Shown piece by piece: positions 4,531 through 57,152 of a DNA stretch of 64,000 nucleotides. The stretch comes from a virus. The first letter of the stretch is position 1; each line of letters opens with the position of its first letter. Location: the UHGV virus genome UHGV-0120889; one strand, given 5' to 3'. A model generated the notes under the pieces. The model made no database searches. It saw only the letters and a list, made by a program, of their open reading frames with translations, and was not told where the DNA came from. Position numbers and translations under genes: made by a program.

Positions 4531-4640
4531 TTTATAGCATCCTTATTAGTCATGTTGTGCACCATATTTGTGTATTTTACCATGATTATGGTGCATTGTC
4601 AATTTAACCTTTCAAGCAATTCAAGAACGTGTGTCAAAAC

Positions 4641-4675
4641 CATAAAAGCAAAAAGCCCCACCCGAAGGTGAGGCT
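4641..4675 (-). terminator. rho-independent terminator after tail tube gene
   Basis: AAGCCCCACC-CGAA-GGTGAGGCTT hairpin 4652..4675 with minus-strand U-tract (plus A-tract 4641..4651). Confidence 0.6.
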
Positions 4676-4692
4676 TATGCTAAAGTGTGCCC

Positions 4693-7618: not shown

Positions 7619-8089
7619 TTACTGTCCGATTTTAAAGGTTGCAGATTCAAGCAGCACATCGTAATGCCGCATAGCCTCGTTGAAGCCTTTCTCTTGTGCC
7701 CACTGCTCGCTAACAGTAGGATTACTAAACTGCCCAGCCTCAATAACAAACTGGATAGCTTTGGCCCCTGTGTCCCCCATCTGCTTAAGAATAGCCTCTG
7801 CACTCGATCCCCTAGCCATAGCTCTCAACAATTTTTCTGTCAAGGTCTGTAGTTGAGTACTATGAAATGCAAAAGCTGTCTCCATGAAATTGCGAACAGG
7901 CAGCCCGTTCCAACCGAAGTTGTGAATGGCTGCCAATGTTGCCATATTTAAGCCTGACGGGTGAGGTTCGTCATAAAAGCCGTAGGTTATTGTTTTACTT
8001 TCAAGTCTCACAAGCTCTTTGTAGAAGCGATCTAAACGCTTTAGGTTGAACCTTGTTTGACATTTAACCTTTAGCATTATATCCCTCAC
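7619..8089 (-). CDS. hypothetical virion protein (head-tail joining region)
   Basis: ORF track; late operon position. Confidence 0.4.
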   Translation of the reverse strand: MRDIMLKVKCQTRFNLKRLDRFYKELVRLESKTITYGFYDEPHPSGLNMATLAAIHNFGWNGLPVRNFMETAFAFHSTQLQTLTEKLLRAMARGSSAEAILKQMGDTGAKAIQFVIEAGQFSNPTVSEQWAQEKGFNEAMRHYDVLLESATFKIGQ

Positions 8090-8130
8090 TAATGTATTTT
8101 ACCACAAAGATGCATCAAAAGCAACAATTT

Positions 8131-12163: not shown

Positions 12164-12594
12164 TATTCATTGCCCTCTTCTACAACACTGATCCCGAAGT
12201 TTACGTTGGTAATTTCACCAGTTTCTTCATCAACATTACCTGTTGCCTGAATGCTTAGGCCACCAACAATGCCAGCCTTCTTAGCTTCCCATAATTCAGG
12301 ATTATTGTATTTAACTTTAGCAACCCAAGAGCCAGCCTTGATGACCTGCTCAGTGCCAATTACTACAACATCAAACTCTTCTTGAATCCACGTCTTTTCA
12401 ATAGTGAAAGCATCTGTAGAGGTCAAGTGAAAAAGGTTTTCAGAAACTAGGCCTGCGGCGTATGCTGCGTCCCAGTTATCTTTAGCCTTTTTGATGGTGT
12501 CTTTACTCATCCACTCACCGTGAGCATCTTTAGTGTCAGGCTCGTAGATGATTTCGTAGGAAATCATTTCTTCCTGTGGCATCTTATTCCCCAT
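12163..12594 (-). CDS. putative prohead protease, HK97-like (start chosen at internal ATG 12594)
   Basis: Motifs resembling HK97-family prohead protease (LFHL...; GIVGGLSIQA; FGISVVE); upstream part of the long ORF would overlap portal so internal start preferred. Confidence 0.45.
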   Translation of the reverse strand: MGNKMPQEEMISYEIIYEPDTKDAHGEWMSKDTIKKAKDNWDAAYAAGLVSENLFHLTSTDAFTIEKTWIQEEFDVVVIGTEQVIKAGSWVAKVKYNNPELWEAKKAGIVGGLSIQATGNVDEETGEITNVNFGISVVEEGNE

Positions 12595-12649
12595 GTGGAT
12601 TATTTTATCACGCCAAAGGAGGTTTTGCAACCCCCTGTGTTGATAATTT

Positions 12650-14206
12650 TTAATTTTCCATGTTGGATATGGAATTATCTCTGGTTGATGACATCTTAGA
12701 AGTGCCGTTGCCAGTGGATCCTGCAGCCATTCCATCACCAGCCCTACTGATGTCCTGGCCCAAGAGCTTCATCAGCTCTTCCTGATCCATGTCCTCGTCA
12801 AATCTTTCATCAAACCCGCCTACTTCAAGAATCTTATTAATTACTGCAGGAGTTTTTGGCAAGTAACCTACAGCACCGATCCTCTGGACAAACTTGGAGA
12901 AGCTCTCCATATCCACTTCTTCAATCAGACCAGGTTTCAGTTTAGGCATATCATCATCTTCAAGGATGATACCATTCAATGCCAGAAGCTGCGGAATAAG
13001 ATCTTTATTGAAGGCCTCAGTGATAATATCTATATCACGCTGAACAAAATGACCATGGATAGACTGTTTTGACTCAGACAGAGAGAAGGACCCAACGTTA
13101 TCGTTACCGAGGTTAATAAAGCCAGCACCGAAACGGTCAAGAATCGCCTTCTTACGGGCATCAATCAAATCTTTAGTGGAATACTGCTTACCCATACCGT
13201 CAACCCCCTTCAGGGTCATGGAGTAAAGCTCTTTACCAGACTTATCTCTATCAGACGGAAGTATAAAGAAACTTTGCTCACCACTATGGGCGTTTGCTGC
13301 GTCAAGCATAAGGTCTGCAACCATTCTCCCTTCCATTGAATTCGGGTCAATGCTGGCCTTGTTCAAAATATTGGAAGGAATTTTCAGCTCAAGCACACCA
13401 CCAAGGTCTTTGGAACAGCCAACAACCTCAAGGTTTTCAATCAGAACTTTCTCACGGAAAGATCTGTAGCAACCTATCATCGGTGACACACCTGCAGGGT
13501 TAGATTCTGTTCCTGACAGGGTCATGAGCATAAGCTTTTTAGCAGGGATGAAAATTTCAGGCTCATTAAAGCCTTTTGAAGGCATTGCAGCAAGAGGTCC
13601 AGCCCAGCGTGCATTCTGAGTGTTTAGAAATGCATTAGGTGATTGATAAATACCTGTCAGTGTTCTACTATTCTTGTCAAAGACAAACGGCTCTGATCTG
13701 GACAAACTGGCCTGAGGTCGGAATGCAATTTTATCAATAAGAAGCATCCCGGCATATTTACCTTCTTTCTCTCTGCGGTATACTTTCTCAAACAGTGAAA
13801 AACCATACTCGTTAAAGGTAGCTGCACTTCTTGCAATATCTCGAAGAGTTTGTTGGTTTGCCAAATTACGCAAAGAATACTCTATAAGCTCGGCAGCTTT
13901 CTTAGAGTCTTCACTTTTAACATTATAAAGGATCTTAAAATCATTAAATGCTTTCGTGATGAAAACATATTTTGTATCTAAGGCAGTAGCAACTGTGGAA
14001 TCACATTTCATAGTCTCCACTGTAGCAATCAGCTGAGGCCAACGCAATTCCTCAACCATCATAGATTGCGATTCTGCCATAATTTGGGAAAGTGCGCCAG
14101 AACCGATCTCACTCATACGAACATTATGAGTTGGTGCGCCTGCGTTCCCAGATTTATTCACAGTTTTGGCTGTGGCGTTGTGTTTCCTGCGGTTCTTTTT
14201 GGACAC
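12650..14206 (-). CDS. portal protein (518 aa)
   Basis: Large ORF between terminase and head-maturation genes; size typical of portal; synteny-based. Confidence 0.65.
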   Translation of the reverse strand: MSKKNRRKHNATAKTVNKSGNAGAPTHNVRMSEIGSGALSQIMAESQSMMVEELRWPQLIATVETMKCDSTVATALDTKYVFITKAFNDFKILYNVKSEDSKKAAELIEYSLRNLANQQTLRDIARSAATFNEYGFSLFEKVYRREKEGKYAGMLLIDKIAFRPQASLSRSEPFVFDKNSRTLTGIYQSPNAFLNTQNARWAGPLAAMPSKGFNEPEIFIPAKKLMLMTLSGTESNPAGVSPMIGCYRSFREKVLIENLEVVGCSKDLGGVLELKIPSNILNKASIDPNSMEGRMVADLMLDAANAHSGEQSFFILPSDRDKSGKELYSMTLKGVDGMGKQYSTKDLIDARKKAILDRFGAGFINLGNDNVGSFSLSESKQSIHGHFVQRDIDIITEAFNKDLIPQLLALNGIILEDDDMPKLKPGLIEEVDMESFSKFVQRIGAVGYLPKTPAVINKILEVGGFDERFDEDMDQEELMKLLGQDISRAGDGMAAGSTGNGTSKMSSTRDNSISNMEN

Positions 14207-14238
14207 AAGCTTTACCCCTCAAAACAGTATAACAAAAT

Positions 14239-14258
14239 AGCCCTCGTGTTAGAGGGCT
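14239..14258 (-). other. stem-loop between terminase and portal genes
   Basis: AGCCCTC-GTGTTA-GAGGGCT hairpin; weak U-tract so terminator function uncertain. Confidence 0.3.
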
Positions 14259-14308
14259 AGTATCTCCGATTACTCTATTCTACCACATCTAATTAAGATT
14301 GGCAACAC

Positions 14309-15397
14309 TTAGATAAAACGCTTGAACATAGAAGGTGATGAGATTGATGGAATCACACAAGGAAGTGCTACTTCCTCTTTCTCCAGGAAATTAATAGCAG
14401 AAGCTACACAGTCAGCCCAGTCGTCTTTTCTGTTAAATGTTGATCTTTCCCCGTTGAATTTTTCAAGTTCAGTCAGAAATGCTTCCAGAGTATCAGGATG
14501 GAAACTGGATTTTACAATCCTCACCATTCCTTGTTGGGCAAGATTGGCAAAAGGTGAGAACCTTGTCAGTTTAGATTTGTTGGAAGGCATTGGGTCTTCT
14601 TCAACCCTAAACCCTTCGGCAAGCAAGGATCTGGAGGAGGTTAAGAACTCACTCTTACCTGCCTGACCGGGGTCCACAGAGAATACGATTATACAATCAT
14701 CACCATCAAACTGCGCCTGTTTCCTGATGATCACATCTCGTTCACCAGCCTTTTTACAGAACTTGCCTTCTAGACCTGTGGAATACCTCCCGTCATCCAC
14801 GTTCTCAGGACAATAATCACCGGACAGGTAATAAAAGCCGTCGCTATCTTTACTTACCTTAACACTGGCGGTAAAGTCAGGAAATTTATTACCGGAAGTT
14901 CTCTCGGTTCCTGCCTTATCCCATGCCCTGCAAGATACTGATCCAAGGGGTACTCTATCGGCATCACGAAGGAAAGATCTTTGAAAATAGTTTGCGCCCT
15001 CAGGCTTTGCAAACCAGTTACCATGAAGAAGCTGAGCTTTTTCCAGTTCCGGCAGACCTTCAAGGAAAGCAAGGTATTCTGGGTTGTCTCTTAAGCAAAC
15101 AGGATTATCGAATATTGTTGCGCCTATAAACGAGAATGACAACGGTCTTGGCTTGATCTCCACACCAAGTCCGTTAACCGTGGTGTATTTCTCTATCAAC
15201 TCTTCTTTAGAGTCCCCCCAGATAAATTCACCGTCGCGTCGGATAAAATATCTTTTCTTACCGCATTTCTCCGGATCTGGATACCCTTCATCGTCCAACC
15301 ACCACCTAACCAGTTTGGCAAGCATGTGTTCTGAATCGGGGTTACAGCTGATAACCATTCTTGATGGATACTTTGACTGAGATCGCAGACGAGACAT
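14309..15397 (-). CDS. terminase large subunit, C-terminal (nuclease) segment; 5' boundary approximate (exon 2)
   Basis: Same strand, immediately downstream of the ATPase segment after a ~340 bp ORF-less gap; frame open upstream of first Met to 15433. Confidence 0.75.
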   Translation of the reverse strand: MSRLRSQSKYPSRMVISCNPDSEHMLAKLVRWWLDDEGYPDPEKCGKKRYFIRRDGEFIWGDSKEELIEKYTTVNGLGVEIKPRPLSFSFIGATIFDNPVCLRDNPEYLAFLEGLPELEKAQLLHGNWFAKPEGANYFQRSFLRDADRVPLGSVSCRAWDKAGTERTSGNKFPDFTASVKVSKDSDGFYYLSGDYCPENVDDGRYSTGLEGKFCKKAGERDVIIRKQAQFDGDDCIIVFSVDPGQAGKSEFLTSSRSLLAEGFRVEEDPMPSNKSKLTRFSPFANLAQQGMVRIVKSSFHPDTLEAFLTELEKFNGERSTFNRKDDWADCVASAINFLEKEEVALPCVIPSISSPSMFKRFI

Positions 15398-15746
15398 CAG
15401 ATAGTCTATCTGCTCCCATTCGAATTGTGTCGTTTATGTTCGGGCAAGGTCGCTAGTCTTGCCCCGCCATTTTCAGGCAGCTGCATGTCTCCATGCAGAC
15501 CAGACTATATCTTATAAGCGACAACAACCGCTTATCCTCCCGTTTCGAATCGCTTGATTCTACGTCTTTCGACTAGTCGTTGAACGTTCATCCTCTCGGA
15601 TGCTTCGCTGCGGATTATCTAAATTAACACACTGTTACCATACCTTCGATCTCTCTTCGAAGCCTCTATCATGTTACCATGACAGGTTGGTGGTATTAAT
15701 AGTAAAGATTTCCCCGCAATTAGGGAGGTTTTACGAGAGCTACAAA
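15398..15746 (-). other. ORF-less intervening sequence inside terminase large subunit gene (putative self-splicing intron)
   Basis: No ORF in any frame; multiple perfect hairpins (CTGCATG/CATGCAG, CTTCGA/TCGAAG, GGGCAAG/CTTGCCC); separates Walker-A/B ATPase part from C-terminal part. Confidence 0.5.
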
Positions 15747-16175
15747 TTAACCCTCATCGAAGCAAACCATGGTGTACTCAAGCCCTTGATGGTTAAGCTT
15801 ATCTTGTACATACTCCATGTGGCAGTATTTTACAACAGCTCCCTTTTTGCTTCTATCCCACTTGCCAGTGTTCGGATCAAACCGTGGAAAAATGAACTTA
15901 TGATCCTTCTCTCTGAACTTTGGCTTAATGTTTTCAGGCAGATCACTATAAATAGCTACCGCTTTAGGCCATAGTCCACCCTCACCTTCCAACTGCGGGG
16001 TTGTTCTTCGGAACATAACCACAGAGCTGTGGGGGTCATCAATAATTTTAAGTGGCATCAATTGCAAGAGGAACGACTTGCCAGACCCTGCGGCACCGCC
16101 GATTACCAAAATATCTGCATCGTTTTCGAGGATCATCTTCTGCTTTTCAGAACACGGTCCGTAAATCTTAGACAT
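15747..16175 (-). CDS. terminase large subunit, N-terminal ATPase segment (exon 1; 3' boundary approximate)
   Basis: Walker A VIGGAAGSGKSF and Walker B-like VCFDE motifs characteristic of large terminase ATPase domain. Confidence 0.8.
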   Translation of the reverse strand: MSKIYGPCSEKQKMILENDADILVIGGAAGSGKSFLLQLMPLKIIDDPHSSVVMFRRTTPQLEGEGGLWPKAVAIYSDLPENIKPKFREKDHKFIFPRFDPNTGKWDRSKKGAVVKYCHMEYVQDKLNHQGLEYTMVCFDEG

Positions 16176-16462
16176 TAACCGCTCTCCTTTGGAAACAGTG
16201 TTCTAATATAGTCTTGCAAAATGATCAATTTAGCTCTATCATTGCTACAAGACAGATTATTATCCCTCATAATGCCAGAATTCACTGCATCTGGCGCACC
16301 TTTCTTCAAAGGCATAGCTTTAGCAGGTGGTTTCATGGCACCTTCCGGGGGTTTAACAATCAACCTTCCTACATCCGGAGGGTCAATCTTGTATTCTCTC
16401 TCAACGTTGGTTGCACACCCACATAATAACAAGCACACAATAAACAGTGTAGCAACTCTCAT
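16175..16462 (-). CDS. o-spanin (Rz1-like outer-membrane lipoprotein)
   Basis: Signal peptide with lipobox-like LLLCGC, Pro-rich mature region, 4-bp overlap with preceding Rz-like gene. Confidence 0.6.
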   Translation of the reverse strand: MRVATLFIVCLLLCGCATNVEREYKIDPPDVGRLIVKPPEGAMKPPAKAMPLKKGAPDAVNSGIMRDNNLSCSNDRAKLIILQDYIRTLFPKESG

Positions 16463-16857
16463 CGATCCTCCTGATTGATACTCTCATTATAAATATCTAT
16501 AAGCTGATCAGGGAGTGTTGACTTCTTGCCTTCAGGTGACTGGAGGTAGATAATCTGCTTTTCTTTACCTGCCTTCTCAGCCATATTTAATTTATCCTGC
16601 AGATCAGAAAGGGATTTTTCAAGGTTTTTAACCTCCTCTGCGTGGCCCATTTTAATTTTGTCGGCCTGCTTTTGTTGCTGATCAAGGATCCGTTCCCACT
16701 TTAACTCTGTTGCTGACACACCCTCTTGGTAGGCTTCATTAAGCTTAAAGTTAAACCAATATACGGCTCCAAGATAAGCTGTACCTAGCGCAGCTGCAAA
16801 AACTAAACCTTTTATGATCCCTCTATACCTACTCAGCCATGTTAAAACTGAAATCAT
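16459..16857 (-). CDS. i-spanin (Rz-like)
   Basis: N-terminal TM helix (LVFAAALGTAYLGAVYWF) followed by charged coiled-coil region; paired with lipoprotein gene. Confidence 0.55.
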   Translation of the reverse strand: MISVLTWLSRYRGIIKGLVFAAALGTAYLGAVYWFNFKLNEAYQEGVSATELKWERILDQQQKQADKIKMGHAEEVKNLEKSLSDLQDKLNMAEKAGKEKQIIYLQSPEGKKSTLPDQLIDIYNESINQEDR

Positions 16858-16870
16858 TTTAAGGCTCCAG

Positions 16871-16906
16871 AAACGAAAAAACCCCGCAGCTATACAGCTA
16901 ACGGGG
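16871..16906 (-). terminator. rho-independent terminator upstream of spanin genes
   Basis: CCCCG...CGGGG hairpin 16882..16906 followed on minus strand by U-tract (plus 16871..16881). Confidence 0.5.
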
Positions 16907-16962
16907 CGGGTTAAAATTGAGTAACCTAAATAGATCGAAACTAACTAAAAGGAGACTAATAC

Positions 16963-17232
16963 TTATCGAGGCACTCGGTGGATGATTCTAACAGTAACTG
17001 CATTTTCATTCATCAAGTATGCATCTACATCTCTGTAAATATAAAACTTCTGCTCACTATCAACAACACAAGCTACCGCCCCTTCAGAGTTGTCTTCAAA
17101 AAAGACCACCACTGCATCGCAGCTGAGTTCATGATATGACTCTCGAAGATTTACAGCCAGAGGATTGAAATCGTCACGAAAATCTACGGTATGGGTTGGA
17201 TTTACACGCTCTACAATTTTAAGTGTATACAT
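16963..17232 (-). CDS. hypothetical protein (90 aa)
   Basis: Internal ATG at 17232 with AAGGAA RBS; longer ORF-track start would run into tRNA-Pro. Confidence 0.45.
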   Translation of the reverse strand: MYTLKIVERVNPTHTVDFRDDFNPLAVNLRESYHELSCDAVVVFFEDNSEGAVACVVDSEQKFYIYRDVDAYLMNENAVTVRIIHRVPR

Positions 17233-17278
17233 TTTAAAGGTTCCTTTTGTTTGTATATGTTTAAAGTATAACTGAAAG

Positions 17279-17355
17279 TGGTCTCCACGGAGTGATTCGA
17301 ACACTCGACCTCCTGATCCCAAATCAGGCGCTCTACCAAGCTGAGCTACGCGGAG
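17279..17355 (-). tRNA. tRNA-Pro (anticodon UGG)
   Basis: Manual cloverleaf: acceptor CTCCGCG/CGTGGAG, D-arm GCTC..GAGC, anticodon loop UUUGGGA, T-loop TTCGAAT, encoded CCA. Confidence 0.85.
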
Positions 17356-17366
17356 TATTTATTATT

Positions 17367-17441
17367 TGGTGGCCCTGGGTGGAATTGAACCACCGTCTGG
17401 CGATTATGAGTCGCTTGCTTGAACCTTCCAGCTACAGGGCC
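17367..17441 (-). tRNA. tRNA-Met (anticodon CAU; could be Ile-lysidine type)
   Basis: Acceptor GGCCCTG/CAGGGCC, anticodon loop CUCAUAA, T-loop TTCAATT, encoded CCA. Confidence 0.8.
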
Positions 17442-17442
17442 A

Positions 17443-17518
17443 TGGTGCTGATGGCAGGACTTGAACCTGCAACCTATTGATTACAAATCAATTGCACTAC
17501 CAATTGTGCTACATCAGC
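17443..17518 (-). tRNA. tRNA-Thr (anticodon UGU)
   Basis: Acceptor GCTGATG/CATCAGC, D-arm GCAC..GTGC, anticodon stem ATTGA/TCAAT loop UUUGUAA, T-loop TTCAAGT, CCA. Confidence 0.85.
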
Positions 17519-17524
17519 AAAAAA

Positions 17525-17623
17525 GGTGCTAGGTGATGGAATCGAACCACCTATGTATTCAACGACTACCTCGTCTATTTTCAGGATTAAAAATCCTCGC
17601 CCTTGCCAAAGGGCTTACCTAGC
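17525..17623 (-). tRNA. atypical tRNA-like gene (possible anticodon UUU; ~30-nt extra arm)
   Basis: Acceptor GCTAGGT/ACCTAGC, D-arm GCCC..GGGC, T-arm GGTGG-TTCGATT-CCATC present, but 99 nt long with oversized variable region and no encoded terminal A. Confidence 0.3.
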
Positions 17624-17721
17624 TCAGTATGTTGACCATGTTGCTAGTCGGCGATGACGACTGTAACATTTGATAATCCGGTTCTGCTTCCGGCTTTCGC
17701 TTAATTACAAGGTCAACAATA

Positions 17722-17812
17722 TGGCTGAGGGTAATGGAATCGAACCATCATCGAGTCATCCTCAACGGGACGGTTTTCAAGACCGCTTGAGCACCATTGC
17801 TCCCTACCCTCA
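17722..17812 (-). tRNA. tRNA-Ser (anticodon UGA), type II
   Basis: Anticodon arm GCGGT-CUUGAAA-ACCGT, long variable arm, T-loop TTCGATT, acceptor TGAGGGT/ACCCTCA, CCA. Confidence 0.75.
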
Positions 17813-17926
17813 TTTATAAACAATACTGATAATGACACTGATTTTCGAGCAGTTAGTGACTAGTATAAACGACGATAAATATCAATGCCATTATCTGTAT
17901 GATTTATGCATTTAAAACTATAAATT

Positions 17927-18013
17927 TGGTGGGGAGTGGTGGAGTCGAACCACCCGAGTCGTAATGACAATAGATTTACAGTCTACACCGCTACCTCTAC
18001 GGGATAACTCCCC
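17927..18013 (-). tRNA. tRNA-Tyr (anticodon GUA), type II
   Basis: Anticodon loop CUGUAAA and variable arm TGTCATTACGACTCG closely resemble bacterial tRNA-Tyr; acceptor GGGGAGT/ACTCCCC, CCA. Confidence 0.85.
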
Positions 18014-18017
18014 AATT

Positions 18018-18092
18018 TGGCACCCCGTACTGGACTCGAACCAGTGTCAACGGCTTAGAAGGCCGCTGCTTTATCCACTAAGCTAACAGGGC
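18018..18092 (-). tRNA. tRNA-Arg (anticodon UCU)
   Basis: D-arm GCTT..AAGC, anticodon arm GCGGC-CUUCUAA-GCCGT, T-arm ACTGG-TTCGAGT-CCAGT, CCA. Confidence 0.8.
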
Positions 18093-18150
18093 ACTGGGTG
18101 GCTTTCTTTTACACCTTAGCCGCCAGAAAAGGTGGGAGACCATGTTTACA

Positions 18151-18179
18151 ATATTACACTGTTAAGCAAAGTTTGTCAA
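18151..18179 (-). promoter_or_regulatory. sigma70-type promoter for tRNA cluster
   Basis: Minus strand TTGACA (18179..18174) - 17 bp - TAATAT (18156..18151), just upstream of first tRNA. Confidence 0.6.
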
Positions 18180-18188
18180 GAAAATATT

Positions 18189-18527
18189 TTAGCTATTGCT
18201 AACAGGTTGTATTTCTGTGGTAAATGGCATAAAAGGTGCTGGTTTTTCAGCCTCTTCTACTACCACCTCTTCCTCTTCACCAAACATCTCATCATATTCT
18301 TCCTGCATTCGGTCTGCCTTATCAAGAACATACTCTGCAATGCTTTGACGAATATTTTGTTTGGTTTTCGGGTCCAACATCAGCTCTCTTAGAACTTTGT
18401 GAGCTTCTGGAACCATCGCTATAAAAGATTCCTTCATATCGAGGATGTTCTTCTCTAGCTGAATGGCGTTGGACTCCTCTTTCAGAGGTCTGCCTCTACG
18501 GCGACGCTTTTTAGTTGTATCCGCCAT
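18189..18527 (-). CDS. hypothetical basic/acidic protein (112 aa; internal start)
   Basis: ATG 18527 with GGAGG RBS; N-terminal KKRRRRGRPLK basic patch, acidic C-terminus. Confidence 0.5.
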   Translation of the reverse strand: MADTTKKRRRRGRPLKEESNAIQLEKNILDMKESFIAMVPEAHKVLRELMLDPKTKQNIRQSIAEYVLDKADRMQEEYDEMFGEEEEVVVEEAEKPAPFMPFTTEIQPVSNS

Positions 18528-18877
18528 GTTTCCTCCATTATCACGTGATAGGTGGATTTTATCATAGCAAATACTGATTGTCAAGTTCGCCGCAGGGTGG
18601 TATTCCCTGCGACTTGTCCAGCGTCCTGGACCAGCAAGACCCAACAAGTGGGTTTTCCAGCTATACCCATTACCGCGCACAGGCTCGACCTTATTACAGG
18701 TTGGCTGGGGTCACATCGTCATGTGCTGGCTGCCCCTACCATTTTAAGTGTGGTGCACTATCAAGCCCTCTAAGGGGAACTCAGCTTTCTCCGAACCCTG
18801 TTTCAAAGCATCCGGAGATAAAAAGCCATCAAATTCATCTTTAAATTGGATATTCATCATGATACACGAAAACAACC

Positions 18878-19120
18878 TCATTGTAAAGCACAAATAAATA
18901 AAACATACTTGATTTGTTTGTTATCGGGCTCAGGGTAGAAGTAGAAGATCTTGCTATCACCGATCTGAACACCACCATCCCAACAGCATAGCCCATAACC
19001 CGTATTCATACAAGCTAAGTCGTTGGCAAAATCTATTGCATCATCCAGTGCACGAAATTCACCTTCATCTTCTAAATAATCCTCATTCATGGAACGAAAA
19101 ACGAGCTTAACCTTAAACAT
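18878..19120 (-). CDS. hypothetical protein (80 aa)
   Basis: ORF track. Confidence 0.4.
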   Translation of the reverse strand: MFKVKLVFRSMNEDYLEDEGEFRALDDAIDFANDLACMNTGYGLCCWDGGVQIGDSKIFYFYPEPDNKQIKYVLFICALQ

Positions 19121-19196
19121 AGCATTACCTGTAGACCTCGTAAGTTAAAATTGTATCACATCATATTGCAGATCTTATCAGGTAACATTATTTTTG

Positions 19197-19406
19197 TCAA
19201 CAGATTCCGGCCTTATCCCTCCTGTCTGCGTATTCTTTAATCGCAACCTCATCTGCATTGGTGACTAAATCTTCAAAGTAACTCTCAAGCTCCTCGTCAA
19301 TGTCAGGAAACCAACTCTTTTTCCTATCAGTGTGAATCGCAGACTTGTTGAATTTATTACAGTTCTTTGCTACCGGATTGTTCATTAATCGCCCCTCAGC
19401 GTTCAT
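19197..19406 (-). CDS. hypothetical protein (69 aa)
   Basis: ORF track; overlaps upstream gene stop. Confidence 0.35.
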   Translation of the reverse strand: MNAEGRLMNNPVAKNCNKFNKSAIHTDRKKSWFPDIDEELESYFEDLVTNADEVAIKEYADRRDKAGIC

Positions 19407-19974
19407 AGTAAATCTTATTTAACATTACCTCATCCTTTGCAGAAAGAATACCGAGATATGCATCACCGAACCTACCTGCAACAACCTCTACATGATACAT
19501 AACTTCGTTAATATCGTCAAGAGTGATAACTGGATGACCGTACCTCTCTGAGTATTGTCTCAGAGTGCGATGTAGGGAATCATCATCGTAGGCAGACTTT
19601 TTAATATCACAAACACGACGAATAGCCTTGATGTCGAAAAACCCTGTGCGATACCAACCAAGAAAAAGGTTTCGTACAGTGTCAACACCTACATCAACAC
19701 CGTCAAGAACCTTATCTACAAGATAGCTGTCATCCTTTGGACCTGCTTCCTTAGTTCGAATGTAGTTGCCATCTTTTCCTGGTGACAGCTCCTTCTCATC
19801 ACCAACCTGAATGCCATCATTTGGCGGTGTTAACCACTTATCCGGATGCTTACGATCACGAGCGTTAGAATGATTACGCTGGAAACCTGGCTTCCACTTG
19901 AAAGTTTTCTCCATCTGTTCTTCATTCTGATAACGTTTTGCAATCTTTTCACGGTCATCTTTGCGTGGACTCAT
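19396..19974 (-). CDS. hypothetical protein (192 aa)
   Basis: ORF track; GAGGAGG RBS upstream of ATG at 19974. Confidence 0.5.
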   Translation of the reverse strand: MSPRKDDREKIAKRYQNEEQMEKTFKWKPGFQRNHSNARDRKHPDKWLTPPNDGIQVGDEKELSPGKDGNYIRTKEAGPKDDSYLVDKVLDGVDVGVDTVRNLFLGWYRTGFFDIKAIRRVCDIKKSAYDDDSLHRTLRQYSERYGHPVITLDDINEVMYHVEVVAGRFGDAYLGILSAKDEVMLNKIYYER

Positions 19975-20480
19975 AGCTGCCTCCTCTTCAAGTTATAGAA
20001 AAACTCACTGTATCGCTTTGTAACGAGCTTTTCTATCAAACTGGTGCGATTGCCTTACCTGGTATAGTTTATATAGCTGTGGAGCGATTTAGGGGCCTTC
20101 TTGTCCGTTTCCACACATAAACTTCATCCAAGCTCGCGCGGGAGACTCTCAACCGACTCCTTACGGCGCTGGCAAGCTTTCGTCGGTGGTCCACATCAGT
20201 GCTCGGCCTTTGGCCTGCGCTATCGCTTCGCTCCCACACATGTTAACAGACCTTCATGTATGCACTTCTGTTATTGTGTGCACCAAGGAGGCCCGGCATC
20301 TCGCCCCTCGTAGGCGAGTGCCAATGAAGGGCCGACACTACCTATAGTAAGTAATAAATTTAAAACATGGTACTTAGGATCTAGTATATTCTACATAAGT
20401 TAAGTATATGTACTTAGTACCATAAGTACTAGATCTTTTATTTTTTTTTTATTATTTAGTTATTTTAGTTATATTCTTTA

Positions 20481-20567
20481 TGTGTCCGTATCACGGACAG
20501 TTAGTGTCCGTATTACGGACAGATGTGTCCGCGTGACGGACAGTAGTGTCCGTATCACGGACAGTTA
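20481..20567. repeat. array of four 17-bp palindromes TGTCCGT-N3-ACGGACA at ~21-22 bp spacing (operator/iteron-like)
   Basis: Read directly: TGTCCGTATCACGGACA, TGTCCGTATTACGGACA, TGTCCGCGTGACGGACA, TGTCCGTATCACGGACA. Confidence 0.8.
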
Positions 20568-20630
20568 CTAACCTCTGTTCCAGAGTGAACATAAAACATA
20601 CGAATCCTTATAGTACAGATATTTAAGTTT

Positions 20631-20990
20631 TTACTGGTCTAACCAGTTGTTGACATTCGAATAACTTCTTCTGGTGGCAAAACTTTGGAAAATGTGCATC
20701 TTTTTACCTCTCCCTTGTGTGGATATTTCAACCACTCCTGCACATTCTAAAGTTTTAACGCACGCTGCTGCTTTTGTTTTCTTTATCCCAATATCTGCTG
20801 CAATTTTCCTTGTGCTGGGCGTGAAGCGTGAATTTCCTCCAAGCTTATACCAGTTGTGCAGGTAGCAGTATACGATCTTGTCATATAAGTCAAGAACAAC
20901 AACCTCACCAGTTGTGTCATTCAAAACTTTTGACATAGACAGTATTTCAAGGGGGACTTTAAGATATAGCAGCTTATCCCCATCTTTCAT
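20631..20990 (-). CDS. putative HTH DNA-binding protein (119 aa)
   Basis: Helix-turn-helix-like segment (RKIAADIGIKKTKAAACVKTLECAGVV); adjacent to palindrome array. Confidence 0.45.
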   Translation of the reverse strand: MKDGDKLLYLKVPLEILSMSKVLNDTTGEVVVLDLYDKIVYCYLHNWYKLGGNSRFTPSTRKIAADIGIKKTKAAACVKTLECAGVVEISTQGRGKKMHIFQSFATRRSYSNVNNWLDQ

Positions 20991-21037
20991 ATCTCCTGAT
21001 TCTCCTTGTGTGGCAATTTTCTTTAAAATAGCAGGGA

Positions 21038-21592
21038 TTACTCCACGCTGTCAATAGCAAGACTCATTGCAATACGGTATGCCTCTTCTAATGGTAAGAG
21101 TCTCCCCCACACATCCCAACCGACATCAAACTGCCTGCCAAACAACTGCTGTGTGGTTCCGTGAGCATGACCGAACAGTTGGACCGATCCGTGAGGCTTT
21201 CTGTTCCACTTTGCAAACTGGTAATGGCTCATACAGATCAAATTCTTGTTGTGGCGAAGCTCGTAATAATCTACAACCTCATGACCGAACTCTTTCATAA
21301 TTCTGACAGTCGTCCTTGTGTCATGGTTACCACGAACAAGAATAATATGTCCGTTCAACATATTTAGAACATCTGGGAGCAATTTGTTAATATTCTTATC
21401 ATTAGTGCACGCAATATCTCCTAAGTGAAACACAGTGTCTGCAGGTGACACAACAGAGTTCCACTTGGTGATGATCCCCGCATTCATACTGTCAAGATTG
21501 TGATCATACTGAGATCTGTGTTTTTGACATGAGTCAAACTCCATGACCCGCTGGTGGAGAAAGTGTGTGTCGCTTGTTACAAAGTATTTCAT
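21038..21592 (-). CDS. calcineurin-like metallophosphoesterase (putative polynucleotide 2',3'/3'-phosphatase)
   Basis: Metallophosphatase motifs VTSDTHF, HLGDIA, VRGNHD, GHAHG; start at internal ATG 21592 with GAGGAA RBS. Confidence 0.65.
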   Translation of the reverse strand: MKYFVTSDTHFLHQRVMEFDSCQKHRSQYDHNLDSMNAGIITKWNSVVSPADTVFHLGDIACTNDKNINKLLPDVLNMLNGHIILVRGNHDTRTTVRIMKEFGHEVVDYYELRHNKNLICMSHYQFAKWNRKPHGSVQLFGHAHGTTQQLFGRQFDVGWDVWGRLLPLEEAYRIAMSLAIDSVE

Positions 21593-21599
21593 ACATTCC

Positions 21600-22010: not shown

Positions 22011-22110
22011 AGTAATCCTCCGTTTTAATTTCAACGATAGTATACCTAACTGTTTTGTTAATTTCAAGTGTTGACACTAGGTTATTTGTGTGGCAGGATA
22101 GACTGACAAA

Positions 22111-26925: not shown

Positions 26926-27396
26926 ATGAAACTTGATAAAAATGTTCAACGAAAAGCTTTCTTGGATATGATCGCATATTCGGAAGGAACAGATAATGGT
27001 AGACAACCTACCAAGGATCGGGGGTACGATGTCATAGTCGGCGGCAAGCTGTTCAGCGATTACAGCAAGCATCCAGGTGTTTACGTTAAGCTAAATGCTA
27101 AACTTACCTCCTCCGCTGCTGGTCGTTACCAGGTTTTGGAGAAGTTTGCTAAACACTACATGAAACAGCTAGGATTACCAGATTTTGGCCCTGCCAGTCA
27201 GGACAAGATTGCGTTGCAACTGATCCGTGAGTGCAAGGCTCTCGCCGACATTGACGAAGGGCGTATCCACGAAGCTATCCGCAAATGCCGTTCCCGCTGG
27301 GCTTCGTTACCCGGCGCTGGATATGGTCAGCATGAACAGAAGATCGAGAAGTTGATCGAGGTGTTTAAAAAGGCAGGCGGCATTGTCCTGGATTGA
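26926..27396 (+). CDS. endolysin, lambda R-type lytic transglycosylase
   Basis: Near-identical motif string to lambda R: QRKAFLDM, SEGTDNGRQ, GYDVIVGG, GRYQ, WASLPGAGYGQ. Confidence 0.85.
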   Translation: MKLDKNVQRKAFLDMIAYSEGTDNGRQPTKDRGYDVIVGGKLFSDYSKHPGVYVKLNAKLTSSAAGRYQVLEKFAKHYMKQLGLPDFGPASQDKIALQLIRECKALADIDEGRIHEAIRKCRSRWASLPGAGYGQHEQKIEKLIEVFKKAGGIVLD

Positions 27397-27459
27397 TCAT
27401 TGACATAACCACACGGACGTGGTATTGTTACCTCATAAAATGTTATGGAGTGTTTAACC

Positions 27460-27666
27460 ATGAAAGATTTTCTGTTGGCAATTTTGTTCATGGCAGCATG
27501 TCTGGCCTGTGGTGTCGTGTTTGCAGGTGAAACAGCGTATCTTGTCGATGTGTATCGGGACAATGGTAAACGTATTTGCCTTTATGAGACAAGCCAAGGT
27601 GAGCTCTACGAGCTTGTGAAACAAGGCGAGGCAGGTTCCTGCCCTCGCACCCATTTCTTTGAATAA
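27460..27666 (+). CDS. small secreted/lipoprotein-like protein (68 aa)
   Basis: ATG 27460 with GGAG RBS; N-terminal hydrophobic signal-like segment with Cys (LFMAACLACGVVFAG). Confidence 0.4.
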   Translation: MKDFLLAILFMAACLACGVVFAGETAYLVDVYRDNGKRICLYETSQGELYELVKQGEAGSCPRTHFFE

Positions 27667-35504: not shown

Positions 35505-36487
35505 TGCTAAAACTGTGCACTGCAAAGATTATTGCTGACAGCATTTCCGAGAAAGGTAAGCGTATCACCACTTTTGAACTAGAGTATCCTCGAATTATTC
35601 ACTCAGAGCTTATGACGCACCGAGTGTTCAGCCGAAACGCCATGTCTTCCCGTGCAGTGCCTGTCGGCAAGATGCTGCAACAGATTGTGGAGAATCCGGC
35701 AATGCCAGTTCGCTTCGGTGTAAATAAGCGAGGAATGGAAGATGGTGGGGAACACGATCAAAAGATCCGTGTAGAGTACACTGACATGGAGCTAACTCCT
35801 GAAGAGTTTTGGAAAGAAGCTGCAAAAAACGCCGCTTGGCATGCAGAGAAGTTCGCCCTTGCTGGTTACCATAAGCAAGTATGTAACCGCTTAGTGGAGC
35901 CGTTCCAGCGCATGAAAACAGTTGTAACAAGCACCGAGTGGAATAATTTTTTCCACCTCCGTTGCTGGCACGATGCGGATCCTACGATTCAGATGTTAGC
36001 TAATTGTATGTGGGAGGCTCTTGAGAATAGCACTCCTGAAATCCTTAAACCGGGTCAATGGCACACCCCATATGTAGAGCACGTTTATTTGGACGGAGAG
36101 TTTAACTACGCTGTACGTGACACAGAAGGAAAGCTCTGCATTCTCGATACTAAAGAAGCTCTGTCTATCAGTGCTAGTTGCTGTGCACAAGTATCTTATC
36201 GAAATATTGACAGCACGTTTGAAAAGGCAGATAGTGTGGCTAAAAAATTGATTGGTGGGGATCGTATTCATGCAAGCCCTTACGAGCACCAGGCAACACC
36301 TATGGATCACGATAACGCAATGGAACGTTTAAACTACTACCTGTCTTCATGTGAAATCACACAAGACATCAGTACTTGGCAGGAAGGTGTAACCCATCAA
36401 GACCGTGATGGTAAATTCTGGTCTGCCAACTTTTGTGGGTGGGTTCAGCACAGACAACTGCTTAATAACCACTTCGTGAAAGGTTAA
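35504..36487 (+). CDS. thyX: flavin-dependent thymidylate synthase-like (ThyX-like)
   Basis: THRVFSRNAMSSRAVP resembles ThyX RHR...S.R signature; sits in nucleotide-metabolism block. Confidence 0.45.
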   Translation: MLKLCTAKIIADSISEKGKRITTFELEYPRIIHSELMTHRVFSRNAMSSRAVPVGKMLQQIVENPAMPVRFGVNKRGMEDGGEHDQKIRVEYTDMELTPEEFWKEAAKNAAWHAEKFALAGYHKQVCNRLVEPFQRMKTVVTSTEWNNFFHLRCWHDADPTIQMLANCMWEALENSTPEILKPGQWHTPYVEHVYLDGEFNYAVRDTEGKLCILDTKEALSISASCCAQVSYRNIDSTFEKADSVAKKLIGGDRIHASPYEHQATPMDHDNAMERLNYYLSSCEITQDISTWQEGVTHQDRDGKFWSANFCGWVQHRQLLNNHFVKG

Positions 36488-49817: not shown

Positions 49818-50045
49818 ATGAGTATAAATGTTGTGCTAATAGGTTACCTGGTAATATCCGTTATAACAGCGGTATTCTTGACAGGTATATGCATCGTGTC
49901 CAGACGAAGGGTGAAGTTTGATGATTTTATCACCATCATCACTGCTGCGCCTTTTTGGCCTGTTGTTATCTTCATCGTAATAATGTGCCTAGTTGATTAC
50001 TACAAGAATATCCGGAAGGAGAGTAGGGATGGAGACCACACCTAA
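49818..50045 (+). CDS. small membrane protein (two predicted TM helices)
   Basis: Hydrophobic stretches VVLIGYLVISVITAVFLTGICIV and IITAAPFWPVVIFIVIMCLV. Confidence 0.45.
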   Translation: MSINVVLIGYLVISVITAVFLTGICIVSRRRVKFDDFITIITAAPFWPVVIFIVIMCLVDYYKNIRKESRDGDHT

Positions 50046-50181
50046 AACTGTTTATACTGTTCTTAAAGAGATTGCGTTCTACGCAGATCTTAGCCAGGCA
50101 CCTTTATGGGAAAAGAGCATGTATTTAAAATGGTGCGTTAATTTAGGGAGACCTTCCAGTGTTTCAAGCCATGTTTATTGA
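50029..50181 (+). CDS. hypothetical small protein
   Basis: ATG 50029 with GGAAGGAG RBS; overlaps previous gene by 17 nt. Confidence 0.35.
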   Translation: METTPKTVYTVLKEIAFYADLSQAPLWEKSMYLKWCVNLGRPSSVSSHVY

Positions 50182-50278
50182 GATGCTATCTGGGGTATTG
50201 TTACTGGTAGCCATCTTAGGTGGTGCAGTTCTGATGTATAACTATCTTGAAAAAGGAGACAGCAATGGCAAAAAATAA
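50171..50278 (+). CDS. micro-ORF encoding hydrophobic peptide (35 aa)
   Basis: MFIEMLSGVLLLVAILGGAVLMYNYL; no clear RBS. Confidence 0.3.
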   Translation: MFIEMLSGVLLLVAILGGAVLMYNYLEKGDSNGKK

Positions 50279-50450
50279 ATCTTTAGAGCAGGCTGAAAAC
50301 CTTCTCCACGAGCTGGTAAAGGAGTGGAAAGTTGAATACTCAGATTTTAATGCACGAGAGGGTGAAGATTATTGGCCTACGGAGCGCTCAGAGGGCGAAT
50401 GGTATCAAGATTTTATAGAGTGGTTATATCAGACGTGCGATGAGGGGTGA
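50265..50450 (+). CDS. hypothetical protein
   Basis: ATG 50265 with AAGGAG RBS. Confidence 0.45.
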   Translation: MAKNKSLEQAENLLHELVKEWKVEYSDFNAREGEDYWPTERSEGEWYQDFIEWLYQTCDEG

Positions 50451-50908
50451 CGATGTTTGTTAAATATGTAAAAACGTGCCTCAACAGTCTTGGCAGAGAG
50501 CATTGGTACACCTTACTTGAAAAAGGAGAAATTTTAACAAAATCTGGAAAGATAACTTTGATACCCTTGGACGATAAAGACCCGTCACTCCTTGTCATAG
50601 ATGATTACGTTACAGGTGTGTCGTACGAGGTCTCTGTGGAGAGGTTAATACGCAGAGCTGGCGGCCCTTATGACCGAAGAGAGTATATTTTCGATTCTGT
50701 TACAGAGAAGGAAGATCCGTCTCTAATGTTCAGGATGGTAATCAGGGATATGAAATCATCTATAAATAGGATCGTAAAGGACATTAAGGAGCCTTTTAGG
50801 GTAAAAGTTAAGAAGTTTTTTGATTCTAAGATTAACATACTTGCCGTTGTGCTAGGCGTAATTCAACTTCTGTTAATTTTGCACTATCTTGAACTGTTGT
50901 TTAAGTAG
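50447..50908 (+). CDS. hypothetical protein with C-terminal TM segment
   Basis: ORF track; C-terminal NILAVVLGVIQLLLILHYL. Confidence 0.45.
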   Translation: MTMFVKYVKTCLNSLGREHWYTLLEKGEILTKSGKITLIPLDDKDPSLLVIDDYVTGVSYEVSVERLIRRAGGPYDRREYIFDSVTEKEDPSLMFRMVIRDMKSSINRIVKDIKEPFRVKVKKFFDSKINILAVVLGVIQLLLILHYLELLFK

Positions 50909-50968
50909 TGTGCAATAAGGCACAAAGGATGTGCCATAACTAAATAAACTAAGAAAGAGGTAGAGAGA

Positions 50969-51316
50969 ATGCCAAAGATTAAATCGATATTAATGTGGGT
51001 AGCTGTTGTAGCTTTTGTAGGATACTGGACTTGGGAAACTGAATTAAAAGATATTGGATATACTAGTTTTGAGAGCAAGGCGTGCATTGGTATAACCGAT
51101 GCGTTCAGGCAAAATGCTATGGATCACGAATGTGTTGATGCAGATATAGATGAGAAACTGTCTAAGGACAAAGATTTTTACCATGGGCATGCTTTGCTTG
51201 ATAGTGGTGATACTGTAGAGTTCTGGTCGTGGTTCCGTGAAGATGGAACAATAAAAACAGCAGTAAAGATCTCTAACAAAGAGTTAATGCTGTTGCAGCA
51301 GAAGGAGGCTCAATGA
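50969..51316 (+). CDS. hypothetical protein with N-terminal TM/signal segment
   Basis: AGAGG RBS; N-terminal ILMWVAVVAFVGYW. Confidence 0.45.
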   Translation: MPKIKSILMWVAVVAFVGYWTWETELKDIGYTSFESKACIGITDAFRQNAMDHECVDADIDEKLSKDKDFYHGHALLDSGDTVEFWSWFREDGTIKTAVKISNKELMLLQQKEAQ

Positions 51317-51600
51317 TCTGGATATCCTATGCTGATGGCACCATGCTGTATACTGCAGGTACCAGATATGAAGTTCAGGAGAACGATAAAAAATTTATCG
51401 TAAGAACATTTGACAAGGACGACAACCTTTTGCTAGAATTGACTTACAAGGTTGGAGAGGTATCCAATATCCAATTGGATTGTGGTCATAAAGATAATCC
51501 ACTCAAAAAACCTGGAATAGGCAAGGCTTCAGAAGAACGTTTGTCTCGTATTGCAGAAAGCGTTTCTACACAAAAATCTAAGAAGGGGACTAGAAAATGA
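51313..51600 (+). CDS. hypothetical protein
   Basis: ORF track; coupled overlap. Confidence 0.4.
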   Translation: MIWISYADGTMLYTAGTRYEVQENDKKFIVRTFDKDDNLLLELTYKVGEVSNIQLDCGHKDNPLKKPGIGKASEERLSRIAESVSTQKSKKGTRK

Positions 51601-51791
51601 AAAACTTACGTTTTAACACTTATTACTACAACACATTGAATGATTTGTACTATATTGTTCGAAGTAAAAGTCCTGAAACAGTCCTATTCTGCCGTGAACC
51701 TTTCAAAGGGGAGGAAGTAGAGTCTGAGATGAATGTTAGCCAAATCACCTCTTTGTTGCTCTCAGGCGCAATGGAAGAAGCAATATTCTAA
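51597..51791 (+). CDS. hypothetical protein
   Basis: ORF track; coupled overlap. Confidence 0.4.
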   Translation: MKNLRFNTYYYNTLNDLYYIVRSKSPETVLFCREPFKGEEVESEMNVSQITSLLLSGAMEEAIF

Positions 51792-51809
51792 ACCGGGCGG
51801 GAGGGTTTT

Positions 51810-51995
51810 ATGAAGCACTATTGCCTGTCTGGTAGAATGGGTGCAGATTGTGATTGGGTTTTCTTAAAACTTGTCAGCATTCGAGAGTTCATCCCAGAGG
51901 AAGAGCAAGAAAGCGAGCTGATGTCATGGATCAACCATTATGGTAACACTTTTCGACATGTTAAGGTAGAAGAGTTGCCAAGCGAGGCTGATTGA
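51810..51995 (+). CDS. hypothetical protein
   Basis: ORF track. Confidence 0.4.
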   Translation: MKHYCLSGRMGADCDWVFLKLVSIREFIPEEEQESELMSWINHYGNTFRHVKVEELPSEAD

Positions 51996-51997
51996 CT

Positions 51998-52087
51998 ATG
52001 ATTGCATCAATATTAACGTTTATGGGTGGCGTGGCATTCGGATTCATTGTTTGCCTGTTTATAGTGATTATGTCTATGCGAGGCTGA
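51998..52087 (+). CDS. micro-ORF encoding hydrophobic peptide (29 aa)
   Basis: MIASILTFMGGVAFGFIVCLFIVIMSMRG; fills gap between genes. Confidence 0.35.
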   Translation: MIASILTFMGGVAFGFIVCLFIVIMSMRG

Positions 52088-54767: not shown

Positions 54768-55100
54768 ATGAAAGTACGCTTTATTGGTGAAACAATTCCT
54801 GTGCATCTCCGGTCTCCTGAGGATTCTGCAGATCTTGCATCTCAAAAGGCGAGAGGTTATGATAAGAAAGTAACCTCAACTGATGTAGTGCTTGAGGCTA
54901 CTAGTCTACCTGACCCTGCTGCATTCTTTAATCATTATGGGTACTATTTCAGCAATCTGATGAATATCGGTGAGCTTGTGTTTATTAGTGGTGGAGAGAT
55001 TGTTAGCAAGCTTGGCGGCGATCCGGATGTCTTTCATGAAACCTGTCCTTTTGCATTTGTGGTAGGTTCAGATGTGGAAGTTATTGAGGAGGTGCGGTAA
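54768..55100 (+). CDS. small acidic protein, paralog family member
   Basis: MKVRFIGE N-terminus at internal ATG 54768; C-terminus SDVEVIEEVR. Confidence 0.4.
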   Translation: MKVRFIGETIPVHLRSPEDSADLASQKARGYDKKVTSTDVVLEATSLPDPAAFFNHYGYYFSNLMNIGELVFISGGEIVSKLGGDPDVFHETCPFAFVVGSDVEVIEEVR

Positions 55101-55495
55101 TGGTAAGCCTATACCGTGTTGAGTATAGCTCAGATACTGTATACAACGTAAGAAGCAAAGATCGCAGCGACAGAGTGCAAGAAATGTATGTTCTTGCCGA
55201 CAGTCCGTTATCTGCAGCGTTCAAGGCAGGGGCTCTTGCATCTCGTTGGAAATTTGAAGGCGGATCTTTCTATGAAGAAACCCTTGAAGATTCTGTTGTT
55301 ATTTCTTCTGTAGAGGTTTCAGATGACTACGAAGGGAAAAAGTTCGTAATGCGGCACCCACACAGCAACATTGCGTACTACTGGGATGTTCTGAACAACG
55401 AGTGGACCCCAGATCTTCAGAAGGCTACTGTGCTAACACCGTTTTTGGCAGATAAGTTCCCACCAGAAGGTAATTTATCCGCACTGTTTCAGTAA
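55100..55495 (+). CDS. hypothetical protein, paralog of 52895..53293
   Basis: Shared RHPHSNIAYYWDVLNNEWTP...KATVLTPFL motif block. Confidence 0.45.
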   Translation: MVSLYRVEYSSDTVYNVRSKDRSDRVQEMYVLADSPLSAAFKAGALASRWKFEGGSFYEETLEDSVVISSVEVSDDYEGKKFVMRHPHSNIAYYWDVLNNEWTPDLQKATVLTPFLADKFPPEGNLSALFQ

Positions 55496-56888: not shown

Positions 56889-57152
56889 ATGAACATCCTG
56901 ATGTGGGTTATAGCAGTGGCGTTTGTTGCATGTTTTTGCTGCTGGGTTGCGGTGAGGATTTCTGTAGCTACCCTTCGGAAGTTGGGGTTCTCAGAATGGG
57001 ATATTAATATCCTTTCTTTTCGCAATGAAACAATCTCAGCCGCCCTGCTTTGTAAGAAATTTAAGTGGGAACCTTGTGAGGTCATGAGCTATCTAAGAAC
57101 AGGCGATATCCCTGAAAGATTTAAAAAAGTTCTTGACGGCAAGGATAAATGA
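56889..57152 (+). CDS. small membrane protein (N-terminal TM)
   Basis: GAGGTG RBS; N-terminal ILMWVIAVAFVACFCCWVAV. Confidence 0.45.
   Translation: MNILMWVIAVAFVACFCCWVAVRISVATLRKLGFSEWDINILSFRNETISAALLCKKFKWEPCEVMSYLRTGDIPERFKKVLDGKDK

Follow-up and report, generated by a model that had tools for sequence, protein, structure and literature searches.

Dispersed lysis genes in a Vequintavirus genome and phrog_1322 as a candidate for the missing holin family

The lysis genes of the phage studied here, of which a stretch of 64,000 nucleotides was analysed (virus genome UHGV-0120889 in UHGV; the whole stretch is called the window below), are dispersed as in T4 rather than collected in a lambda-style cassette. 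An earlier reading of the letters alone, here called the original prediction, had placed a spanin pair directly upstream of the terminase gene, a lambda-R-like endolysin on the other strand about 10 kb away, and no obvious holin, and all three points held when the genes were compared with databases. We propose that the missing holin is an orthologue of the slur16 protein gp086, which is encoded outside the window, and we give this a probability of about 0.5. The family of gp086, phrog_1322, which is related to the uncharacterised Pfam family DUF2644, could then be an unrecognised holin family that supplies the missing holin of the Vequintavirinae, and for this the sequence comparisons leave the chances slightly under even.

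Judged by nucleotide comparison, the window is part of the genome of a Vequintavirus, an rV5-like phage of E. coli. Over bases 14000-29000 (15 kb) the identity is 99.8% to Escherichia phage slur16 and 96-99% to more than 100 other rV5-like phages of the genus Vequintavirus, and bases 48000-64000 are alike in this respect. The near-identity runs over stretches of 15-16 kb, and the gene order is the same as in slur16 and phage inoa.

The arrangement and the missing holin are already published for rV5-like phages, and the window adds no difference to what is described. In the rV5 genome paper from 2013, Gp89 was recognised as the lysin, no holin homologue was found, and ORF129 (open reading frame 129) was guessed to be the holin from a prediction of its transmembrane domains, TMDs (PMC3606486). 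Dispersed lysis genes or a missing holin are also reported for LL12 (PMC6658697), Gotham (PMC7471380) and KPP-1 (PMC9862379), the description of phiSalP219 agrees with the rV5-type arrangement and missing holin, and in CB7, rV5 and PVP-SE1 the spanin pair adjoins the large terminase gene, outside any lysis cassette (PMC7344957). Our literature searches found no experimentally defined holin for rV5, PVP-SE1, phi92-like, Moby or RS138 phages. The arrangement alone repeats these published facts and changes nothing by itself. What is new here is that rV5 gp129 is restricted to its genus and ambiguous in topology, the finding on the slot of the small gene next to the endolysin, and the gp086/phrog_1322 candidate together with its context in Mu-like phages.

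The endolysin and the gp086 candidate

The endolysin is the orthologue of rV5 Gp89 (Table 1). Its alignment to 1am7 spans residues 4-154, with AYSEGTDNG in the place of AWSEGTDNG in lambda, and the catalytic E19 is kept. By homology of its catalytic domain the product is assigned the lambda R-type lysozyme/lytic transglycosylase fold; Pfam-A gave no match at E≤1, and the assignment rests on the PDB and PHROG matches. The gene lies amid ligase, exonuclease and polymerase genes. The protein is without any N-terminal hydrophobic segment, be it a TMD, a signal or a signal-arrest-release (SAR) domain, as is expected of a cytoplasmic enzyme. Since it has no export signal, a hole-forming holin should exist if the lambda paradigm applies, and the endolysin would depend on it.

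Near the spanin and endolysin loci no ORF gave a match to a holin family in any of Pfam, PHROGs and NCBIfam, which are the collections meant wherever holin models are mentioned below, and the RefSeq record of slur16 (136.9 kb) has no holin annotated anywhere. The original prediction had left room for a canonical holin adjoining the lysis genes, and beside either locus none is recognisable by these matches. It had also suggested that a small membrane protein encoded elsewhere, for instance from position 49818, may be the holin, or that the holin lies outside the window. Both are live options, and the evidence favours the second.

In slur16, gp086 is annotated as a membrane protein, and its gene is wedged between tail-fibre genes with spacers of 9 and 11 nt. 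By collinearity it would lie about 22 kb to the left of position 1 of the window, and no member of the family was found within the window by tblastn and hmmsearch. It is a small membrane protein with a charged C-terminus, as is common for holins, and it has two weakly hydrophobic helices. The loop carries no K/R and two D/E, and the termini carry three K/R each. The positive-inside rule predicts an N-in/C-in orientation with an acidic loop, both for gp086 and for the Mu-like member of the family. The protein is conserved in 369 phage records, with every genus of the Vequintavirinae represented and, beyond them, phi92-like and Phapecoctavirus-like phages and the Aeromonas Plateaulakevirus. Its membrane core is nearly invariant and the charged C-terminal tails vary in length, also when metagenomic relatives are included.

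A profile of gp086-like sequences was searched against 1.84 billion representatives, which gave 64 representative relatives. All of the relatives that were aligned and scanned (62/62) belong to phrog_1322, three match Pfam DUF2644, and the core of the family reads SHTKxW[SA]NIG..T..F ... E ... Y..VA....SKF[LI]SLK[YW]G. In Mu-like phages the genes of the distant members directly follow that of a soluble endolysin, often overlapping it by 4 nt, and next comes an i-spanin whose o-spanin partner is embedded or overlapping. The order of endolysin, family member and spanin is seen in the metagenomic contigs L012 and L014-L016, where the endolysin is a Peptidase_M15_4, and in L019, where it is an Amidase_2. 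It is also seen in Pseudomonas phage Bise and in Ralstonia phage RS138, in which ORF26 is the endolysin, ORF27 the membrane protein and ORF28 the Rz-like spanin, all behind GemA and Mor.

We sampled 80 IMG/VR loci, seeded from the Mu-like members by a narrow alignment. At 53 of them a same-strand ORF of at least 90 amino acids ends within 250 nt upstream of the family member. These ORFs encode 48 unique proteins, and 35 are peptidoglycan hydrolases of six Pfam families: Peptidase_M15_4/VanY (11 of 35), Peptidase_M15_3 (8), Glyco_hydro_108, GH108 (7), Amidase_2 (5), Amidase_3 (2) and CHAP (2). A stop/start overlap of 4 nt is typical for many of the pairs of endolysin and family member. Eight loci were inspected in detail; the endolysins lack a TMD in all eight, and in seven no membrane ORF other than the family member separates the endolysin from the spanins. 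When one small membrane family sits beside endolysins of many unrelated types, within spanin cassettes, this is classically the mark of a holin in genomes. This recurrent adjacency is found in the Mu-like branch, and not for the Vequintavirus gene itself.

At the other 27 of the 80 loci no upstream ORF on the same strand reaches 90 amino acids, and most of these loci hold N-terminally extended forms, in contigs of up to about 155 kb. Acidovorax phage ACP17 (L026, 3393..3830) and the loci L013 and L023 have such N-extended phrog_1322 members with three helices. In T4-like phages (Busanvirus, Menderavirus and their metagenomic kin) the extended form is a lone gene on the opposite strand, between DNA polymerase and dUTPase/regA.

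If gp086 is the holin, it would be made together with the tail fibres late in infection, insert into the inner membrane with both ends inside, accumulate there, and then form holes. The holes would let the pre-made endolysin reach the wall, and the spanins would afterwards fuse or disrupt the outer membrane.

Several observations weigh against gp086 and its family as holins. The protein matches no curated holin model; only phrog_1322, named 'membrane protein', and weakly DUF2644 were found. For a holin, its core is unusually conserved. The gene always travels with the tail-fibre genes, in a fibre/baseplate module, in rV5-, phi92- and Plateaulakevirus-like phages, and this linkage would also fit a membrane protein for fibre assembly or superinfection exclusion. 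The link between gp086 and the Mu-like members is remote (E 1e-4 to 1e-7 by profile and 3e-4 to 7e-3 by pairwise tblastn), and the function of the Vequintavirus and Mu-like members may have diverged. The figure of 35/48 is biased by the seeding and describes the Mu-like branch, not the whole family. At locus L098 a second ORF with two TMDs stands beside the family member, and a DUF2730-like membrane protein, of the releasin family, is also found in Mu-like cassettes and could be the hole-former. Finally, gp086 lies outside the window, and it is from near-identical relatives that it can be presumed present in this genome.

A holin sets the timing of lysis and the burst size, and for the Vequintavirinae, which are among the most often isolated therapeutic and biocontrol coliphages, an assigned holin has been lacking since 2013. 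In gp086 there is a concrete and cheaply testable candidate that would close an annotation gap flagged by several groups. If it is true, a function would be assigned to the widespread phrog_1322 / DUF2644-like family, and if the family is the holin also in those Mu-like phages that have cytoplasmic endolysins, this would complement the 'releasin' picture of Mu itself, in which there is no holin. An identification of DUF2644 with Mu gp19, gp20 or gp24 was rejected, as these proteins had no match to it when scanned with Pfam. The papers searched contain no mention of DUF2644.

Other explanations for the missing holin

The small ORFs were scanned for transmembrane segments, as the original prediction had suggested, by hydropathy of the coding-strand ORFs. 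The candidates found are listed in Table 1 and named below by their first base, besides a few tiny ORFs. Among the small membrane proteins scanned in the window there is no match to a curated holin family. Most of them belong to small PHROGs that are confined to the genus and have no known function, the exceptions being ORF 27460 (phrog_4641) and ORF 50447 (phrog_7821). Five of them, most of them genus-restricted, are packed into 2.3 kb on the plus strand (49818..52087), and this cluster may be a module for exclusion, lysis control or membrane remodelling.

The alternative that survives best, though we consider it unlikely, is that ORF 49818, the orthologue of rV5 gp129, is a holin of class II type that lies far from the endolysin, as the holin does in T4. 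It has two strong TMDs and a charged C-terminus, it is the sole rV5 protein called two-TMD by both TMHMM and Phobius (PMC3606486), it is present in every Vequintavirus record matched (116 records), and its neighbours in the cluster possibly include regulators. However, gp129 is confined to the genus Vequintavirus, with 55-98% identity, whereas the spanins and gp086 are far more widely shared, and it is homologous to none of the holin families. That confirmed holins are late genes is a stated principle (PMC9239132), and gp129 is found behind a near-consensus sigma70-type promoter (TTGACA-17-TAGTAT), amid small genes of the DNA-metabolism/early strand. The positive-inside rule leaves its orientation ambiguous, with four K/R in the 9-residue inter-helix loop against four K/R in the C-tail, and a C-out orientation, unlike that of known holins, is as likely as C-in. 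Nor is it linked to the other lysis genes, the endolysin being 22 kb and the spanins 33 kb away, and the CPT annotators of LL12 took up no holin call (PMC6658697). Taken together, gp129 as the holin is possible but weakly supported.

It is still less likely that one of the other small membrane proteins in the window, ORF 27460, 50969 or 56889, is the holin or a lysis regulator. ORF 27460 is directly downstream of the endolysin and is 95-100% conserved within the genus. The original prediction had described it as a small signal-peptide protein and not a multi-TMD holin, in agreement with the single N-terminal hydrophobic segment that we find, and a promoter-like site lies between it and the endolysin. 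In SSBI34 and ChuuTotoro, which are Certrevirus-like phages, its homologues hold the same slot between ligase and exonuclease, but with no lambda-R-like gene within 3.5 kb. Since the slot is kept without the endolysin, the adjacency appears to reflect an insertion of the endolysin and not a conserved pairing, and a holin or antiholin role argued from the position next to the endolysin was rejected as weak. ORF 50969, with its N-terminal anchor and an external domain of 90 amino acids with two Cys, has a layout like T4 T and RI, and rIIA/rIIB are also carried by rV5-like phages. Against these proteins it must be said that ORFs 50969 and 56889, unlike ORF 27460 with its distant homologues in the subfamily, fall in small genus-restricted PHROGs, that all three belong to families of unknown function, and that none of them matches a holin or antiholin model.

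Just as improbable is an explanation without a conventional holin. In that case the wall degradation would be started by an exported SleB-like Hydrolase_2, and the lambda-R-like enzyme would be accessory or escape through other membrane damage, loosely as in the holin-less Mu. This second muralytic gene is located in slur16 directly upstream of rIIA, its stop overlapping the rIIA start, and rIIB follows. The enzyme carries an N-terminal hydrophobic signal and is kept across the Vequintavirinae, whereas the type of the cytoplasmic endolysin differs between the genera (lambda-R-like, PVP-SE1 gp146-like or a T5-like peptidase; PMC7344957, PMC11358711), and lysis without a holin has its precedent in Mu (PMC9239132). 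The signal resembles an ordinary cleavable Sec signal, however, and not a Gly/Ala-rich SAR domain. The soluble lambda-R-type enzyme is about 96-100% identical across the genus, which argues that it is used and needs a hole, and Certrevirus has a two-TMD ORF behind its SleB-like gene (PMC7344957), which suggests an association with a holin even there. The gp086 orthologue is the candidate we prefer over all of these, and a share of the probability is given to none of the explanations.

The spanin operon and the layout of the window

The i-spanin has a single N-terminal TMD at about residues 13-35, followed by a charged helical remainder, which is the periplasmic coiled-coil domain, and its counterparts are annotated as i-spanin in phage inoa and as Rz-like spanin in slur16. 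The o-spanin has a lipobox, LLCG, cut before C16; of the 80 residues of its mature part nine are Pro, and there is one more Cys. The Ala at position +2 would direct it to the outer membrane. The two genes are adjacent, as in other two-component spanins, and share a 4-nt ATGA overlap; the large-terminase operon begins with this pair. The stop of the o-spanin gene overlaps the ATG of the first terminase exon (TAATG, base 16175), which implies that the spanins and the large terminase form one translationally coupled unit. In a census of spanins the rv5 family is listed with the 'separated' architecture (PMC6139136).

The stem-loop in front of the operon ends 18 nt ahead of the i-spanin ATG, and no sigma70-like promoter is seen between it and the i-spanin gene. 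If it acts as a terminator, the spanin-terminase operon would need read-through, antitermination or a promoter of an unrecognised type. The terminase gene itself is split by a group I intron; introns in the large terminase gene of rV5 have been described (PMC3606486). Some relatives, for example inoa, have a homing endonuclease ORF in the gap, which is not present in the window.

Table 1. Coordinates of the features discussed, in the window unless slur16 is named.
Feature	Position	Strand	Size, basis and remarks
Structural and packaging block	1 to ~22000	-	GC skew, ORF orientation
Large terminase exon 2 (nuclease part)	14309..15397	-	ORF; slur16 and inoa annotation
Group I intron in terminase gene	15481..15759	-	Rfam RF00028, 84.3 bits, E 5.5e-20
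Large terminase exon 1 (ATPase N-terminus)	15747..16175	-	ORF; annotated as terminase large subunit in slur16 and inoa
o-spanin (Rz1-like), outer-membrane lipoprotein	16175..16462	-	95 aa; phrog_1267 'Rz-like spanin', E 2.2e-22
i-spanin (Rz-like)	16459..16857	-	132 aa; phrog_4297 'Rz-like spanin', E 2.3e-49
Stem-loop and U6, intrinsic-terminator-like	16875..16907	-	RNA fold -16.9 kcal/mol, z -3.3
DNA-metabolism genes and many small genes	~22100-59000	+	GC skew, ORF orientation
Lambda-R-type endolysin	26926..27396	+	156 aa; PDB 1am7, E 1.5e-56; phrog_90, E 4.7e-56
Sigma70-like promoter, TTGACA-17-TATTGT, TG-extended	27400..27428	+	Consensus scan, 10/12 matches; consensus match only
Small protein, N-terminal signal peptide or signal anchor	27460..27666	+	68 aa; phrog_4641, family of unknown function
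Two-TMD protein, rV5 gp129 orthologue	49818..50045	+	75 aa; phrog_10061, unknown function
Small membrane protein	50159..50278	+	39 aa; hydropathy
C-anchored 'virion structural protein'	50447..50908	+	153 aa; phrog_7821
N-anchored protein with 90-aa domain and 2 Cys	50969..51316	+	115 aa; hydropathy
Small membrane protein	51992..52087	+	31 aa; hydropathy
Single-TMD protein, other candidate of the original prediction	56889..57152	+	87 aa; phrog_13956, genus-restricted, family of unknown function
Third block	beyond ~59000	-	GC skew, ORF orientation
slur16 gp086 'membrane protein'	slur16 55021..55287, outside window	late strand	88 aa; phrog_1322, E 2.7e-32
SleB-like Hydrolase_2 with N-terminal signal peptide	slur16 35984..36484, outside window	-	E 2e-19

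The GC skew and the orientation of the ORFs divide the window into three blocks. A transfer of slur16 coordinates by a fixed offset fails past about 18.7 kb because of indels, and the small ORFs were therefore picked de novo. Sigma70-like promoters with a TG-extended -10 (TTGaca-N17-TG[GA]TAaAAT) were seen in the intergenic regions of the structural operons at 4531..4692, 8078..8130, 12583..12649 and 14207..14308, all on the minus strand, and no T4-type late promoter motif was evident in the structural-operon intergenic regions. A late-promoter motif as a means of timing the small membrane genes was tried and given up, as the promoters of the structural operons and of the DNA-metabolism genes are alike and no temporal sorting is possible.

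Some other features of the window were observed. A 15-bp palindrome, GTCCGT-N3-ACGGAC, occurs four times at 20484..20562 with a spacing of 21-22 bp (7 strand-matches as compared to 0.04 expected), within a non-coding stretch of 660 bp between 19972 and 20635, and looks like an operator or iteron array. The legend of the rV5 genome map shows a box named 'non-coding' (PMC3606486). At 17525..17623 on the minus strand, in a cluster of seven tRNAs, there is a 99-nt tRNA-like gene to which ARAGORN gives the four-base anticodon atcc and Rfam just 35.5 bits; it could be an odd, intron-containing or frameshift-suppressor-like tRNA. Among the sequences compared, about 20 GenBank records (MG0656xx) are labelled 'Campylobacter phage' with Campylobacter jejuni as host, and are 95-96% identical to the coliphage over 15-16 kb. 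These host labels appear doubtful, and the records may represent contaminating coliphages.

Comparison with known lysis systems

The closest comparison is to rV5 and its relatives, which have the same genes in the same layout: a Gp89-type lysin, a spanin pair beside the intron-split large terminase gene, and no holin homologue. The likeness to the S-R-Rz/Rz1 system of lambda consists of a close homologue of R and of the three-step logic with a holin, a soluble endolysin and a two-component spanin. It differs in lacking a cassette and an S-like holin, and in that the spanin genes are separated and not embedded. The spanins of the window have no Pfam match, and are thus unrelated in sequence to the Rz/Rz1 Pfam families.

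In T4 the lysis genes e, t, rI, rIII and the spanin genes pseT.3/pseT.2 are unlinked, and t comes directly after the tail-fibre genes 37-38. The Vequintavirus phages are similar to T4 in having unlinked lysis genes, a soluble endolysin among non-late genes, spanins of the separated type, and rIIA/rIIB. The location of t behind tail-fibre genes compares with that of gp086, which is flanked by such genes. For none of T4 T, RI and RIII was a homologue found. The candidate gp086 differs from the T4 holin in its two short TMDs and in lacking a large periplasmic domain, and the spanin genes differ from those of T4 in being joined to the terminase operon.

The class II holins, such as S68 of phage 21 and gp17.5 of T7, are 70-90 amino acids long and have two TMDs in an N-in/C-in orientation. 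gp086 and its relatives match them in size and predicted topology, in a first helix rich in Gly/Ala/Ser/Thr and in the charged C-tail, but there is no detectable sequence homology, as judged by the lack of a Pfam holin match. The partner endolysins are soluble and not of the SAR type, which implies that a pinholin mechanism would not suffice. The Mu-like cassettes (ORF26-27-28 of RS138, Bise and the IMG/VR contigs) share the gp086 family itself, with the motif ..SHTKxW[SA]N.. and the matches to phrog_1322 and weakly to DUF2644. In them the gene has the endolysin on one side and the spanins on the other, behind Mor, whereas Vequintavirus has distances of tens of kilobases between the three functions.

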